The position numbers and the translations under genes are program-made. A stretch of 41,282 bases of DNA, from contig PDQT01000216.1 of the NCBI GenBank assembly GCA_002747875.1, positions 1 to 41,282 of the forward strand, in the 5' to 3' direction. Source of the stretch: a bacterium DOLZORAL124_64_63. Its GTDB lineage: Bacteria > Krumholzibacteriota > Krumholzibacteriia > LZORAL124-64-63. Positions within the stretch are counted from its first letter, which is position 1. Every line of letters begins with the position of its first letter. Shown here piece by piece: positions 26,027-29,329 of this stretch. The notes beneath the pieces are model-generated. The model was not told where the DNA came from. It did no database searches and saw only the letters and a list, made by a program, of their open reading frames with translations.

Positions 26027-26473
26027 TCAGCCGCTTGTCGTCTTGTAGAGATATTCGACTCCGAAATCCTCGGCCTTTAGTGTGGAAAACTCCGTATCCG
26101 GCATTTCCAGATTTAGTTGACGACGCATATCCTCCAGGGAGTCGGCCACCCGACCGAGGCGATCTGCCAGGGCCTGGATCTCCGGTCCGTTGGTCCTCCG
26201 AGCCGCCGTTTCCGTCGGACCGGTGAAGCTGCCGGCGGTGTAGCCCGTTTCGGTGGTCCGTACGGTTTCCGCCGGGGCCGTTGGCGGGGTGGCCCTTTTG
26301 CGCAGCTTCAGGCCGGCGGGTCTTGGCAGGGCGGGCGCGTGCAGACGCCAACGGCGCAACTGGGAGCCGATGGCCACCACCAGCAGGGTGGTGCCCAAGG
26401 CCACGGCCGCGGCTGCGGCGTAGAAGACGGGGCCCAGGTCCGGGATACGGTGGAAGATGATGTCCGCGTTCAC
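26027..26473 (-). CDS. Hypothetical single-pass membrane protein (148 aa), N-out/C-in predicted, helical C-terminal region
   Basis: GTG start is preceded by AAGGAG with a 7-nt spacer. TM segment VFYAAAAAVALGTTLLVVAIG is followed by RRWRLH...KLRKR. I recognise no family. Confidence 0.6.
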   Translation of the reverse strand: MNADIIFHRIPDLGPVFYAAAAAVALGTTLLVVAIGSQLRRWRLHAPALPRPAGLKLRKRATPPTAPAETVRTTETGYTAGSFTGPTETAARRTNGPEIQALADRLGRVADSLEDMRRQLNLEMPDTEFSTLKAEDFGVEYLYKTTSG

Positions 26474-26498: not shown

Positions 26499-26840
26499 TC
26501 ATGCTCGCATATCGATCAGGCTGCCCAGATCCTCGTCTTCTTCAGCGGTTTTGGGGTCATTTTCGGAATCGGTGGTGAAACGTCCAGCCGGTCGGCGCTG
26601 CTGCAGCTTCCGGCGCCGCCGCCGCCGGCGTTCCCGGCGTCGGTCCTCGTCGGGATCGATTTTGCTGTCCGCGGTCTTCTCCGTTTCCTTGACCCGCTGG
26701 GTCTTCAGGGACTCGTCCTTGGACTGTTGCTCCTGAAACCCGGTGGCGGGCTGCGTCGCCTGCTGGGCGCGGGCCTGGGTCTTGGCCACAGTCCCCATCT
26801 GGGCCAGCTGGGTGGGCATGGAAACACCGTCGCCTGCCAC
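26499..26840 (-). CDS. Hypothetical highly charged, probably disordered protein (113 aa) with an RRRERRRRRRRK tract
   Basis: GTG 26840 is preceded by GGAAAGGAAAAG. Codon third positions are mostly G/C. It sits 53 nt after fliA and 25 nt before the next ORF. I recognise no family. Confidence 0.5.
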   Translation of the reverse strand: MAGDGVSMPTQLAQMGTVAKTQARAQQATQPATGFQEQQSKDESLKTQRVKETEKTADSKIDPDEDRRRERRRRRRRKLQQRRPAGRFTTDSENDPKTAEEDEDLGSLIDMRA

Positions 26841-26893: not shown

Positions 26894-27856
26894 TCAGGCG
26901 CCGGGCCACTGGCCGGTGGCGGCCAGGTAGCCCAGATAGCTGCAGATCTGGAAGATGGAGAACGCGGCCATGATGTTGACCGGTTCCAGCTTCTCTTCTT
27001 CCACGGCGCAGACCGTCCGGGGATGGGCTGGAGATTTCTTCTGCTTGTTCTGGATGCGCTTGGTGATCTGGCCGATGCTGCTTTTGCCCTCATGGCGCTG
27101 GATCTTGCCCTTGAGACGCAAGATGGCCTTGGTGTGGATCTGGCAGACGCGGCTTTCGGTCACGTCCAGGATCTCGCCGATTTCCTTGAGGGTCAGCTCC
27201 TCGTAGTAGTACAGGACCAGAACCAGCTGCTCCTTATCCGGCAGTTCGTTCATGCGCTGGCCGATGAGTTCCTTCATCTCCTGTTGGGCCAGCACCTGCT
27301 CCACATCTTCGGTGCGGGGGTCGGCCAGAAGTTCTCCCAGGCTACTGCCCTGTTCGCTGTCATCGCTGCGGTTGTCCGCGTCCAGGGACATGATCGTGGC
27401 GATGCTCACCTCTCCCACCAGACCGTCCAGATCCTGCACGTCGATCCCCAGGTGGTCGGCCACCTCCGCGTCGGTGGCGTGGCGCCCCAACTGGCCTTCC
27501 AGGTGGCTGTAGGCCTCCTCCAGTTGCTTGGCCTTGCGGCGCAGGCTACGGGGGAACCAGTCCTGGCTGCGCAGCTCGTCCAGGATGGAGCCCCGGATAC
27601 GCGGGATGGCGTAGGTTTCGAACTTGATGCCCCGGTCGGGATCGAAATTGTCGATGGCCTGGATCAATCCCAGCAGACCGGCACTGATCAGATCGTTGAA
27701 TTCCACGTAATGGGGAAGGCCTATGGCCATGCGACCGGCCACGTATTTGACGATCCGGGCATAGATATCGACCAGTTCCTGCCGGGATTCCTCACGCCTG
27801 CTGCCCTGCAGGTTCTCCCAGACCTCTTGATGGGCAATGAGTGTGCTTTCCGCCAT
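26894..27856 (-). CDS. fliA: Flagellar sigma factor FliA (sigma-28 / WhiG family) with a ~68-aa C-terminal extension
   Basis: Region 2: DLISAGLLGLIQAIDNFDPDRGIKFETYAIPRIRGSILDELR. Region 4: LVLVLYYYEELTLKEIGEILDVTESRVCQIHTKAILRLK. ATG 27856 (GAAAGG RBS) is preferred over the track's TTG 27886. Confidence 0.9.
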   Translation of the reverse strand: MAESTLIAHQEVWENLQGSRREESRQELVDIYARIVKYVAGRMAIGLPHYVEFNDLISAGLLGLIQAIDNFDPDRGIKFETYAIPRIRGSILDELRSQDWFPRSLRRKAKQLEEAYSHLEGQLGRHATDAEVADHLGIDVQDLDGLVGEVSIATIMSLDADNRSDDSEQGSSLGELLADPRTEDVEQVLAQQEMKELIGQRMNELPDKEQLVLVLYYYEELTLKEIGEILDVTESRVCQIHTKAILRLKGKIQRHEGKSSIGQITKRIQNKQKKSPAHPRTVCAVEEEKLEPVNIMAAFSIFQICSYLGYLAATGQWPGA

Positions 27857-27895
27857 TGTACGGCCTTTCTGAAGGTTGGTTGACAACCTGGTATA

Positions 27896-27946: not shown

Positions 27947-28186
27947 TCATGTTTCCGTCTTGACGGTCTCTGCGGACTTGTCGGCTTCATTGGCCGGAGC
28001 TTCGGTCTGCTCGAAATACGGGATGATCATCATCAGCATGGCCAGCACAGCCCCCAGGAAGAAAAAGCCCAGGTAGCTGAGCACGACCCGCTTAAGGGTG
28101 CTGAGCAGCCCCCAATCCTGCCAGATCCCGGCCCCCAGGGTGATGACGGCTGCCAGCAAGGCGATGGTGTTGACGATCCTCTGCAT
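27947..28186 (-). CDS. Hypothetical small membrane protein (79 aa, two predicted TM helices) in the position normally held by flhG
   Basis: Its ATG is 3 nt after the flhF TAG (TAG-AAG-ATG). Predicted TM segments are IALLAAVITLGAGIW and LGFFFLGAVLAMLMMII. I recognise no family. Confidence 0.6.
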   Translation of the reverse strand: MQRIVNTIALLAAVITLGAGIWQDWGLLSTLKRVVLSYLGFFFLGAVLAMLMMIIPYFEQTEAPANEADKSAETVKTET

Positions 28187-28189
28187 CTT

Positions 28190-29329
28190 CTAGCCTTCTT
28201 CGCGCGCCTGCTGTTCCCGGTAGCTGTTTCCCAGGGGCTGTCCCAGGATGAAGTCCAGCAGGGCGCCGCTCGCGGCGATCTCCAGATTCCCGTCCCAACC
28301 CACCAGGCTCAGGGGCAGCGGGATGCGGTCCACGTATTCCAGAACCTTGCCGGGGCGGCGGGTGGCCTCCAACCCCGTCAGGGCCAGCCAATCGCAATTC
28401 CAGTTCCGCGCCGCTTCGGACAGGACATCCATGTCGGCCGGGTCGTAAAAGGACGGCACAACCATGTGACGATGGAAGGTGGTGTTCCCGCTCAGCCAGC
28501 TGTGCAGGATCCGTCCCGGGTCCATCTGCGGATGCCCCACGGGGGGCATGTCCACCAGCACCACTTCATATTTGCTCAGGTGCTTCTCGCTGCGGGTCAG
28601 TTGCTGAGGCTTCTGGATGATGGCCGCGTCGAAACCCAGCCGGGCAGCCTCCACCTGTAACTGCTTGACCCTGCCGTGGTGGGGCGGCATGACGCTCAGC
28701 ACCAGGGTGCGGCGGCCCATTTTCCGGAGCCGGGCGGCGGCGTTGAGGATCAGCTCGAAGGAGTCCGCGGAACGGGGTCCCAGGAAGGCGTGGCAGCCGT
28801 AAAAGCCGTCCCATTCGCAGTTGCTGGCCTTCAGGTTCTCCGCCAGCCAGACCAGGGCACCGGCCCGGTTGTCCGGACGCTGGCCGGTTTCGCTCAGGAA
28901 GCGCGTCAGAAGTTTCTGGACGGTGTGCTCGCTGGTGCCCGCGTCCAGGAAGCTCTGGGCCAGGGGGTTGTTCGCCAGCATGCCGCCGATGCCGTCCCGC
29001 CGGGTGAACTCTTCGGCGATCTCCGCCACCAGGTTTTCGATACGCGCCACTTCGGTCAGGAGCTGGTCGGCCGTCAGGGAGGAATCCCGCCCAGGAACCG
29101 TGGAGTTAATGGCCCGCGGGCTCATGGCGCCCGGTGCCTGGACGGTGACCTCCACGAACTTCTCGTGGCCCAACCCGTGAGGCTGCCGCCGGGTGACGGT
29201 GCGGCTGCCCAGGATCACGGCATCCTCCCCGTAGGTCTGCTTGACCAGCTTGTAGGCCCCTTTGAGGGTTGGGGCGGTGACCACCGGGTTTTGATCAGCC
29301 GGCGGCCTGTTTCTGTTGCGCGAATCCAT
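28190..29329 (-). CDS. flhF: FlhF-like flagellar biosynthesis protein with degenerate SRP-type GTPase motifs
   Basis: The N-terminal B-domain block LKGAYKLVKQTYGEDAVILGSRTV is typical of FlhF. The NG domain is collinear with B. subtilis FlhF, but G1 reads GPRSADSFEL, G3 reads DMPPVG and G4 reads TGLEAT. It sits directly after flhA. The start is uncertain because it overlaps flhA by 35 nt. Confidence 0.75.
   Translation of the reverse strand: MDSRNRNRPPADQNPVVTAPTLKGAYKLVKQTYGEDAVILGSRTVTRRQPHGLGHEKFVEVTVQAPGAMSPRAINSTVPGRDSSLTADQLLTEVARIENLVAEIAEEFTRRDGIGGMLANNPLAQSFLDAGTSEHTVQKLLTRFLSETGQRPDNRAGALVWLAENLKASNCEWDGFYGCHAFLGPRSADSFELILNAAARLRKMGRRTLVLSVMPPHHGRVKQLQVEAARLGFDAAIIQKPQQLTRSEKHLSKYEVVLVDMPPVGHPQMDPGRILHSWLSGNTTFHRHMVVPSFYDPADMDVLSEAARNWNCDWLALTGLEATRRPGKVLEYVDRIPLPLSLVGWDGNLEIAASGALLDFILGQPLGNSYREQQAREEG

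Follow-up and report, generated by a model that had tools for sequence, protein, structure and literature searches.

Within the window, that is, the whole stretch of 41,282 nucleotides that was analysed, a flagellar gene cluster contains flhB, flhA, an flhF-like gene and then a sigma-28 gene (fliA), a setting shared with canonical sigma-28 factors. FlhB (PF01312) and FlhA (PF00771) are encoded upstream of fliA on the same strand, in one operon-like run. The flhF-like gene of the locus carries no recognisable Pfam signature, and flhG is missing from this lineage. Three small genes flank fliA, and the coordinates of all features are collected in Table 1.

Table 1. Features of the fliA locus, with positions in the window.
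Feature	Position	Strand	Description
fliA CDS	26894..27856	minus	FliA/WhiG sigma-28, 320 aa plus stop, with C-terminal extension
Canonical sigma-28 core, residues 1-252	27101..27856	minus	Regions 2, 3 and 4, ending ...ILRLKGKI
Proximal tail segment, residues 253-270 (QRHEGKSSIGQITKRIQN)	27047..27100	minus	Amphipathic, nearly invariant short helix
Variable spacer, residues 271-289	26990..27046	minus	Charged, Pro-rich, predicted disordered
Distal hydrophobic helix and C-cap, residues 290-320 (LEPVNIMAAFSIFQICSYLGYLAATGQWPGA)	26897..26989	minus	Conserved
orf79	27947..28186	minus	Small protein with two TM segments, encoded between fliA and the flhF-like gene; candidate membrane partner
orf113	26499..26840	minus	Charged small protein directly 3' of fliA; candidate partner
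orf148	26027..26473	minus	Protein with a single N-terminal TM segment; candidate membrane partner

A canonical sigma-28 core

The open reading frame described in the first-pass annotation (26894..27886, minus strand) is present. Because all fliA homologues in our alignment open with the N-terminus MxExxxIAH, we set the true start at the ATG at 27856, which gives a protein of 320 aa. Sigma70_r2, Sigma70_r3 and Sigma70_r4 were each found above the Pfam gathering score, the last ending at residue 259 of the 330-aa frame that begins with TTG, or at about residue 249 when counted from the ATG. The TIGR02479 model (FliA_WhiG) is matched end to end, from position 1 to 223/224, by FliA residues 28-252, with 271 bits against a cut-off of 189.6, and WhiG and FliA chains are the nearest folds. 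This protein is a FliA/WhiG sigma-28, a member of group 3 of the sigma-70 family. With the canonical FliA/WhiG/SigD proteins, represented by Aquifex FliA-FlgM (1RP3), the E. coli structure 6PMI and S. venezuelae WhiG (6PFV), it shares regions 2, 3 and 4, with up to 44% identity to WhiG. In the sigma core, pN is 0.116 against a saturated pS.

Sigma-28 factors of the FliA/WhiG type are typically 230-280 aa long and end soon after region 4.2. The first-pass annotation had built on this short end, and the comparison bears it out: 35 FliA/WhiG genes from other phyla extend 7-23 residues (median 10) beyond the region-4.2 landmark, versus 72 in the window protein. Measured from region 4.2 itself, canonical proteins end after about 5-25 residues, whereas here 68 more follow core residue 252, arranged as a helix, a spacer and a hydrophobic helix. 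The extension of ~68 aa claimed in the annotation, ending in a hydrophobic helix, is hence confirmed, and the tail sequence that it quoted is exact. Alignments to the sigma-28 and WhiG chains of the PDB cover query residues ~10-253, every chain stops at 251-253, and none of these solved structures has anything that corresponds to the 68-residue tail. In lacking the short end the protein departs from other FliA/WhiG members; the tail is added architecture, and the membership stands.

A tail in three parts

The tail consists of a proximal helix, a spacer and a distal helix (Table 1), and its total length is held within 65-81 residues among homologues. What had been called a basic linker comprises two parts, a short helix that hardly varies and then a spacer that does. 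In the proximal helix, I261, I264 and I268 form a hydrophobic stripe, and R254, E256, G257, S260, G262, Q263, T265 and I268 are invariant across 121 homologues; AF2 predicts this helix at residues 256-273. Column entropy in the spacer is ~2.3-3.4 bits, except at Q272 (0.8), and its pLDDT in the AF2 model is below 50.

The core motif of the distal part is [VI]-[ND]-[VIL]-[MTV]-A-[CGA]-[LF]; after it come ~18 hydrophobic residues and an end that contains Pro, and P292, V293, N294, A297, L308, W310 and G315 are conserved in at least 90% of homologues. The hydrophobic stretch, correctly placed at 26912-26980 in the annotation, corresponds to residues 293-315 of 320 (VNIMAAFSIFQICSYLGYLAATG) and leaves 5 residues to the end; among homologues, the helix ends 5-12 residues before the C-terminus. 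Conservation along the distal helix has no significant one-face or heptad periodicity, as a power at least equal to the observed one came up in 3420 of 5000 shuffles. Asn294, Ala297, Leu301 and Leu308 fit an a/d-like register, which was noticed post hoc. We also considered a Cys-x3-Cys-x2-Cys metal or redox site, a pattern present in many homologues, and set it aside, as the pattern is not conserved in the window protein, where C305 is the sole Cys.

The last 3-5 residues are the least conserved part of the tail. This matters for the reading of the tail as a C-terminal degron or quality-control tag, whose apolar end would be recognised by a protease or adaptor and would give free sigma-28 a short half-life. 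Apolar C-termini are common protease signals, sigma-28 is under protease control in enterobacteria, and the tail sits at the extreme C-terminus of FliA. However, the final residues are the most important ones for such tags, and a few residues suffice, whereas here a 25-residue helix comes with a proximal helix that is invariant and a spacer whose length is conserved. We consider a degron very unlikely.

Maintenance and spread of the tail

A profile of the tail matches 88 of the 91 genomes of one Krumholzibacteriia family (f1), once per genome and always at the 3' end of fliA, and none of the 117 other genomes of the phylum. When the profile was searched against 1.84 billion representative proteins, 16 matches were obtained. 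Thirteen are FliA fragments from the same clade, and the remainder comprises P0136, a protein that bears the distal motif and looks like a chimera, and two apparently artefactual repeat proteins; on the basis of this search, we rejected the idea of a mobile module carried on other proteins. A recognisable version of the proximal segment, with no distal helix, is also found in the tail-less sister family f6. The tail arose once, in one Krumholzibacteriia family.

Within the tail, pN is 0.177 in the proximal part, 0.59 in the spacer and 0.26 in the distal part, with a saturated pS of 0.67-0.79. The dN/dS of the distal helix is ~0.18, and the pN of the spacer is close to pS. The G/C-rich third codon positions reported earlier were recovered as well, with a GC3 of 0.85 in the tail (0.93 in its distal part); the sigma core has 0.82, and the genes nearby have 0.79-0.89. 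An artefact or neutral read-through, in which a lost stop codon or an assembly error yields a meaningless extension, might be suspected in a source genome that is a fragmented MAG of 374 contigs with 6% contamination. However, 88 independent genomes have the same in-frame tail, as do more than 120 metagenome proteins, its GC3 is gene-like, and its non-synonymous divergence is far below the synonymous one. A lost stop codon and neutral evolution, which the first-pass annotation had named as grounds for abandoning its claim, are rejected, since the tail is a translated and conserved element whose proximal and distal parts are both under purifying selection; the artefact retains next to no probability. 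The annotation's expectation of translation and its proposed comparison with relatives thus both came out in favour of the tail. Residues 253-320 are a genuine, selectively maintained and lineage-specific addition to sigma-28, for which a regulatory role would be the natural reading.

FlgM is retained

The annotation had further proposed that the tail could gate sigma-28 in place of FlgM export. This part of the claim did not hold. As in canonical sigma-28 systems, an FlgM gene (PF04316) is present in the same genome, on contig C374, where it is clipped by the contig end and scores 26.6 bits, above the Pfam cut-off; a search of 24 family relatives found FlgM in 21. Since flgM is retained, replacement of FlgM by the tail is unsupported, and we rejected it. 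We likewise rejected a fused FlgM-like or other known domain. A Pfam scan of full-length FliA, tail included (E<=0.01), returned nothing beyond sigma-70 and HTH families, and an NCBIfam scan of the tail alone (E<=0.1) gave no match. Comparison of the tail profile with FlgM of the relatives by hhalign yielded a probability of 0.0, and nothing was found against the profiles of orf113, orf148 and orf79.

The distal helix and a proposed tethering of sigma-28

The protein has the layout of a tail anchor, with one hydrophobic segment no more than ~30 residues from the C-terminus and no signal peptide or other TM segment; the next most hydrophobic 19-mer of FliA reaches a KD of 1.18. The KD19 of the distal helix is 1.59 (mean 1.56, range 1.25-2.14 in 121 homologues), and the values in the window are 1.96-3.09 for real TM helices and 1.16-1.61 for segments of soluble proteins. 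A crude Hessa sum gives +2.8 kcal/mol for the distal helix, with true TM helices of the window at -4 to +2 and the most hydrophobic soluble-protein segments at +5 to +10. The hydrophobicity of the distal helix is borderline, between the membrane helices and the soluble segments of the window; its Hessa value is nearer to the true TM helices, which counts for tethering, whereas a KD19 below that of every real TM helix in the window counts against it. Because the hydrophobic moment is low (0.05-0.28), the helix is apolar on all faces, so that of the earlier description as "hydrophobic or amphipathic" the first term stands and the second does not. An apolar helix of this kind on a flexible tether requires burial, either in lipid or in a partner.

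We favour tethering of sigma-28 by its tail, to the membrane or to a partner, over intramolecular autoinhibition, and assign it a probability of about 0.4. The tail would be built as a tether, with the short invariant helix packed close to region 4, then a disordered spacer of ~20 residues and conserved length, and at the end an uncharged hydrophobic helix of 20-25 residues. Sigma-28, probably in complex with FlgM, would thereby be held at the cytoplasmic membrane, where this terminal helix would act as a marginal C-tail anchor or pack against orf79 and orf148, the small membrane proteins encoded on the two sides of fliA. We infer that the regulatory consequence would be a spatial or sequestration layer added to the FlgM checkpoint beside the flagellar export gate, with FlgM not replaced. 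The conservation of small membrane proteins on both sides of fliA counts for tethering. On the other hand, a membrane-held sigma factor needs to be released, or to have promoters brought to the membrane, in order to work. In a stronger form of the proposal, the sigma-28 of this family would be a true tail-anchored protein in an orf79/orf148 membrane complex beside the export gate, and its release, through a switch of partners or a cut in the spacer, would await completion of the basal body; we regard this form as rather unlikely.

The 18-residue core of the distal helix is uncharged in 29 of 39 species. In the other 10, Lys, Arg or Glu occurs inside the hydrophobic segment, often together with Pro-Pro, and these residues, present in about a quarter of the species, fit poorly with a simple membrane span. 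Also counting against tethering, sequence conservation on all faces of the helix is higher than in generic tail anchors. Such sequence-specific conservation, together with the charges and Pro-Pro of some subclades, suits a protein interface better than lipid, as in autoinhibition. In that case, the helix would fold back on the apolar surfaces of region 2 or region 4 that bind core RNAP, the same surfaces that FlgM covers, and free sigma-28 would stay closed or protected as long as neither a signal nor core RNAP dislodges the helix. A flexible spacer of fixed length followed by a conserved helix is also how tethered intramolecular ligands are classically built. However, C-terminal extensions of ECF sigma factors usually accompany the absence of an anti-sigma factor (PMC7826278), whereas FlgM is kept here, and the tail lacks the similarity to FlgM that the hhalign comparison could have revealed. 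Neither does the structure model point to docking. The full-length AlphaFold model is poor (mean pLDDT 64, with region 4 at only 47-59), and the distal helix at 292-314 scores 71-82 in it and 90-93 when the tail is modelled alone. Since this tail-only control scored even higher, the pLDDT of the helix is uninformative on docking and gives no sign that the core stabilises it. We find autoinhibition doubtful.

Neighbouring genes and a natural loss

The small genes around fliA are conserved. orf79 is found in synteny in 85 of the 91 family genomes, and also in sister families, and the KD19 of its TM segments is 2.0-2.3; orf148 is syntenic across the family and in f6, with a TM segment of KD19 2.15. 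No compensating charges were seen in the TM helices of orf79 and orf148 from species with Lys, Arg or Glu in the tail helix, another point against tethering. orf113 keeps its synteny throughout the family and always follows fliA directly, at a distance of 25-60 nt. It has conserved ends (N-terminus GDGVSLPTTLAQxGxVAKTQA, C-terminus GxLIDxRA) and no Pfam or NCBIfam match.

One near-complete family genome, G013 (98% complete), has no distal helix, and orf79, orf113 and orf148 are gone from the entire genome, through losses at two separate sites, one on each side of fliA. This joint loss, in a single genome, hints that the distal helix may work with the module formed by the three genes, and autoinhibition would leave it unexplained. 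The module also occurs in sister family f6, where the distal helix is missing, and therefore has no need of the tail, which counts against tethering; a phyletic link between the distal helix and gain of these neighbours was rejected on the same ground. We also rejected a connection of flhG loss with the distal helix, since the f5 and f6 sister-family loci examined have no room for flhG between flhF and fliA.

The constant position of orf113 also brings in a soluble partner. The distal helix could dock on orf113, on a flagellar export chaperone or on the cytoplasmic domain of FlhA or FlhB, and would then bring sigma-28/FlgM to the export gate. FliA is already known as a chaperone for FlgM secretion, a role that this would widen. 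Flagellar chaperones usually bind their clients via C-terminal helices, the genes for FlhA and FlhB share an operon-like run with fliA, and orf113 was lost along with the distal helix in G013. In addition, in-frame read-through from fliA into orf113 is found in one relative. However, this fusion is clean in just that one assembly, a second case resembling a frameshift, and orf113 exists in f6 without the distal helix. Neither profile similarity nor co-variation was detectable, and an all-round apolar helix would be unusual in a soluble complex. We judge a soluble partner quite unlikely.

The naturally truncated protein of G013 shows that the core alone is tolerated, which would fit a pro-sequence: the tail would insert into the membrane and block sigma-28 activity until cut off by a protease, either intramembrane or cytoplasmic. 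Pro-sigma-K and pro-sigma-E of Bacillus sporulation carry a short apolar extension, associate with the membrane and are inactive until the extension is removed. The conserved helix-perturbing Asn, Gly/Cys, Gln or Pro residues of the tail would fit such a scheme, as similar residues are often found in substrates of intramembrane proteases, and the disordered spacer could hold a cleavage site. Nevertheless, the Bacillus extensions are N-terminal, as known pro-sigma sequences are, and are served by dedicated proteases, whereas the fliA locus has no linked protease gene and the spacer no conserved site. Being purely analogical, this scheme has a slim chance in our view.

Comparison with known systems and implications

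To our knowledge, every studied sigma-28 is a plain soluble protein of ~240 residues, controlled wholly via a separate anti-sigma factor and proteolysis. Sigma-28 and FlgM are the textbook case of gene expression coupled to the assembly state of a machine. A search of the literature on sigma-28 C-terminal extensions or tail-anchored sigma factors returned nothing relevant. In Bacillus, the swrB gene lies just after the sigma-28 gene, and the position of orf148 after fliA resembles it. SwrB, with an N-terminal anchor, and Fluke (Flk) of Salmonella, a cytoplasmic regulator with a single C-terminal one, are membrane-anchored regulators of the sigma-28/FlgM and secretion-switch checkpoint (PMC13344023), which sets a precedent for tethering. 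In both, the anchor is on a separate protein, whereas in the window the putative anchor is on the sigma factor, and the likeness is one of anchoring and gene order.

Conserved, clade-specific C-terminal appendages are also known from ECF sigma factors, with SnoaL or TPR domains in ECF41, ECF42 and ECF56, a Cys-rich tail in ECF238 and 5-7 TM helices in ECF263, where the appendage spans the membrane (PMC7826278). The 68-residue tail described here exceeds the 50 conserved residues that mark extensions of this type. However, ECF sigma factors belong to group 4, lack region 3 and usually have no separate anti-sigma factor, whereas the window protein belongs to group 3, has Sigma70_r3, finds its best families in FliA/WhiG and keeps FlgM. 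Moreover, its appendage is a single short helix, versus domains in ECF factors.

Altogether, a whole family has kept a built-in hydrophobic tail on its sigma-28 across a divergence that saturates synonymous sites. Although the organisms are uncultured, the tail is short and modular and a naturally truncated variant exists, so tethering can be put to the test directly in a heterologous host. If the tail localises or gates sigma-28, it would provide a second, independent wiring of transcription to flagellar assembly, and the principle of sigma factors carrying their own regulatory extension would be widened from the ECF group to group 3. If the protein is tail-anchored, it would be the first membrane-anchored group-3 sigma factor, with a second, spatial checkpoint atop FlgM secretion.

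A C-terminal tail on a complete sigma-28 factor

The source of the window is a 3.4-Mb MAG in 374 contigs (93% complete), of which the window is one whole 41-kb contig. The fliA open reading frame proposed in the first-pass annotation (26894-27886, minus strand) is present as claimed. Since the aligned homologues all begin MxExxxIAH, we took the ATG at 27856 as the true start, which yields a protein of 320 aa. Its core contains Sigma70_r2, r3 and r4 (Pfam), and TIGR02479 (FliA_WhiG, NCBIfam) matches end to end over residues 28-252 (271 bits, cut-off 189.6). Alignment to the solved sigma-28/WhiG chains 6PFV, 6PMI, 9WSM and 1RP3 ceases at residues 251-253, within a few residues of where those chains terminate, and Foldseek with the FliA model retrieved the same sigma-28/WhiG neighbours as the sequence. 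Because the core is complete and the solved chains stop there, residues 253-320 are extra. Indeed, 72 residues separate a region-4.2 landmark from the C-terminus, versus 7-23 (median 10) in 35 FliA/WhiG genes from other phyla measured from the same landmark. FliA of the window belongs to the FliA/WhiG family and carries a non-canonical addition. The tail sequence and its hydrophobic stretch (26912-26980, residues 293-315) had been described exactly, and its third positions are as G/C-rich as in real genes of the window (GC3 0.85, and 0.93 distally).

Searching 5.8 billion proteins yielded more than 120 homologues, 314-352 aa long and covering 96-100% of the query, and their alignments divide the tail into three parts. 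In the proximal part, R254, E256, G257, S260, G262, Q263, T265 and I268 are identical across 121 sequences; in the distal part, P292, V293, N294, A297, L308, W310 and G315 are at least 90% conserved. Column entropy in the spacer is about 2.3-3.4 bits, one position excepted. Divergence by region (Nei-Gojobori counts, 11 close relatives, pS pooled) shows purifying selection on the protein in both the proximal and the distal block. In sequence the spacer is close to neutral, yet total tail length is kept, being confined to 65-81 residues across homologues. In the window protein, residue 310 (26926-26928) is Tyr instead of the Trp found in 115 of 121 homologues, and residue 298 (26962-26964) is Ala instead of the Cys found in most. 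A C-x3-C-x2-C pattern that occurs in the distal helix of many homologues is absent from the window protein.

Regions of FliA and associated genes (window coordinates unless a contig is given; G000, genome of the window; C374, contig; L127, locus)
Feature	Location	Strand	pN	Pooled pS	Character
Sigma core	residues 1-252		0.116	0.67	
Proximal tail	residues 253-270		0.177	0.79	nearly invariant; predicted helical
Spacer	residues 271-289		0.59	0.77	rich in Pro and charge; pLDDT <50
Distal tail	residues 290-320		0.26	0.68	LEPVNVMAxLxLxQLxxxLxWLxxxGxWPG
flhF-like gene	28190-29329	-			no Pfam match at E<=1e-5
orf113	26499-26840	-			small, conserved, charged; Arg/Lys-rich middle
orf148	26027-26473	-			N-terminal TM, Arg-rich stretch, conserved C-terminal helix (LxxLLxRLxxAADRLE)
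flgM, partial	G000:C374:10396-10602 (= L127 2396-2602)	-			C-terminal 68 residues only in assembly

Phyletic range and origin

A tail profile (A3) built from 39 tails was searched in 208 genomes of the phylum. In the window's family it matched 88 of 91 genomes, with a single match in each, invariably at the end of fliA, so that the extension is conserved in relatives; none of the 117 genomes of other families matched. The three family genomes lacking a match are 75-85% complete. An assembly error or neutral read-through as the origin of the tail is excluded by its presence in 88 family genomes and by the low pN of the conserved blocks, and the chance of an artefact is negligible. Sister families have short polar tails only (27-40 polar residues in f4 and f5), and f6 retains 28 residues resembling the proximal helix. 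On this basis, the distal helix is a single evolutionary invention, added to an older short tail.

Against 1.84 billion representative proteins, the profile matched 16: 13 FliA fragments of the window's clade, one chimeric-looking protein with the distal motif (P0136) and two artefact-like repeat proteins. In the metagenome protein P0133 (210 aa), the sequence Q(Q)VNIMAGL(T/A)LC, identical to the tail core motif, occurs four times, and P0123 (960 aa) is a long repeat protein with 13 profile matches. For both, a translated repeat or a chimera is the probable explanation, but the motif identity in P0133 is odd.

Physical properties of the distal helix

AlphaFold2 predicted the distal helix at residues 292-314 of full-length FliA (pLDDT 71-82), and the tail folded alone gave the same helix at pLDDT 90-93. 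Given this control, the confidence is intrinsic to the helix, and pLDDT cannot be read as docking on the sigma core. Intramolecular autoinhibition, in which the tail would act on its own sigma factor, we consider rather unlikely, though it is the strongest rival of the tethering proposed below.

For the best 19-mer of the tail, the Kyte-Doolittle mean (KD19) is 1.59, the crude Hessa sum +2.8 kcal/mol and the hydrophobic moment 0.16; the 121 homologues average 1.56 (range 1.25-2.14), with a moment of about 0.1. Calibrated on segments of proteins from the same window, the tail falls between true TM helices (FlhA, FlhB, orf79, orf148; KD19 1.96-3.09, crude Hessa -4 to +2) and the most apolar segments of soluble proteins (FlhF-like, HDOD, bEBP; 1.16-1.61 and +5 to +10). 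The 18-residue helix core is uncharged in 29 of 39 species; in the more divergent genera the helix holds a single Lys, Arg or Glu, and often Pro-Pro. A test for conservation on one face was not significant. All faces of the distal helix are apolar; it is marginal as a membrane span, and its sequence is better conserved than that of a generic anchor. An apolar helix on a flexible tether would have to be buried, whether by lipid, by a bundle of membrane proteins or by a deep groove in a protein. No compensating charges were seen in the TM helices of candidate partners. That the tail docks to a soluble partner (orf113, for instance, or part of the export machinery) seems improbable.

FlgM and the gene neighbourhood

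The first-pass annotation had suggested that the tail, as an anchor or an autoinhibitory element, might gate sigma-28 in place of FlgM export. Its view of a real, regulatory-looking tail holds, but the replacement of FlgM does not, as the gene is kept in the window's genome and in relatives. FlgM (PF04316) exceeds its cut-off in the window's genome; a contig end interrupts the gene, and the 68 residues present could be aligned to a congener's FlgM of 119 aa. It was found in 21 of 24 family relatives searched, typically ~30 kb from fliA. A full-length Pfam scan (E<=0.01) revealed no known domain beyond sigma-70/HTH families, and an NCBIfam scan of the tail alone had no match at E<=0.1. Profile-profile comparison showed no resemblance of the tail to FlgM or to the neighbouring small proteins.

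By Pfam and synteny, the same-strand order is flhB - flhA - flhF-like - orf79 - fliA - orf113 - orf148 - HDOD - HDOD - sigma-54 activator. There is no space for flhG between the flhF-like gene and fliA in the window; a link between the tail and flhG loss was rejected, as this gap is too small in the examined f5 and f6 loci too. The product of orf79 has two TM segments, that of orf148 one N-terminal TM, and that of orf113 is charged. These three genes are syntenic throughout the family and occur in tail-less f6 as well; the module therefore predates the distal helix. Matching no Pfam or NCBIfam family, orf113 has an invariant-like N-terminus (GDGVSLPTTLAQxGxVAKTQA) and a C-terminal GxLIDxRA, and might act as a flagellar factor, either secreted or regulatory. 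In position (two genes past the sigma-28 gene) and topology, the only features compared, orf148 is like SwrB of Bacillus.

In one family genome, G013 (98% complete; L034, G013:C16), FliA ends in KVNVTV, a short way into the distal motif, with an HDOD gene directly after it. Profiles of orf79, orf113 and orf148 had no match anywhere in this genome; in two family controls and one f6 control, the same profiles detected each of the three genes. Since orf79 lies on the opposite side of fliA, at least two separate deletions are implied. In effect, G013 is a natural mutant with all three module genes deleted. This single case fits a distal helix that works with a small, largely membrane-bound module. 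In another locus, fliA reads in frame into orf113, giving a 445-aa fusion (L068 6001-7335; the same contig as L128/G115:C85, one assembly seen twice). A second apparent fusion (G120, L129) is frameshift-like. Such fusions could reflect an assembly error, or serve as a Rosetta-stone hint.

Discussion

Full-text literature searches uncovered no published sigma-28 bearing a comparable tail. The nearest concept is that of ECF sigma factors with C-terminal regulatory extensions, the second most common mode of ECF regulation, usually without an anti-sigma factor and, in ECF263, with 5-7 TM helices (PMC7826278). However, ECFs are group-4 sigma factors, whereas FliA of the window combines an extension with FlgM. 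Membrane-anchored regulators of the FlgM checkpoint are also known, Fluke with a C-terminal and SwrB with an N-terminal anchor (PMC13344023). Unlike this tail, they are proteins separate from the sigma factor.

Pro-sigma-K offers another analogy for the tail. A C-terminal pro-sequence removed by proteolysis is nonetheless quite improbable here, and a degron very unlikely.

We tentatively favor, with a probability of about 0.4, tethering of sigma-28 via its terminal helix. The helix would hold sigma-28, probably bound to FlgM, at the membrane, or else next to the export gate on the orf79/orf148 module. Tethering of this kind would add a spatial layer on top of the FlgM checkpoint.
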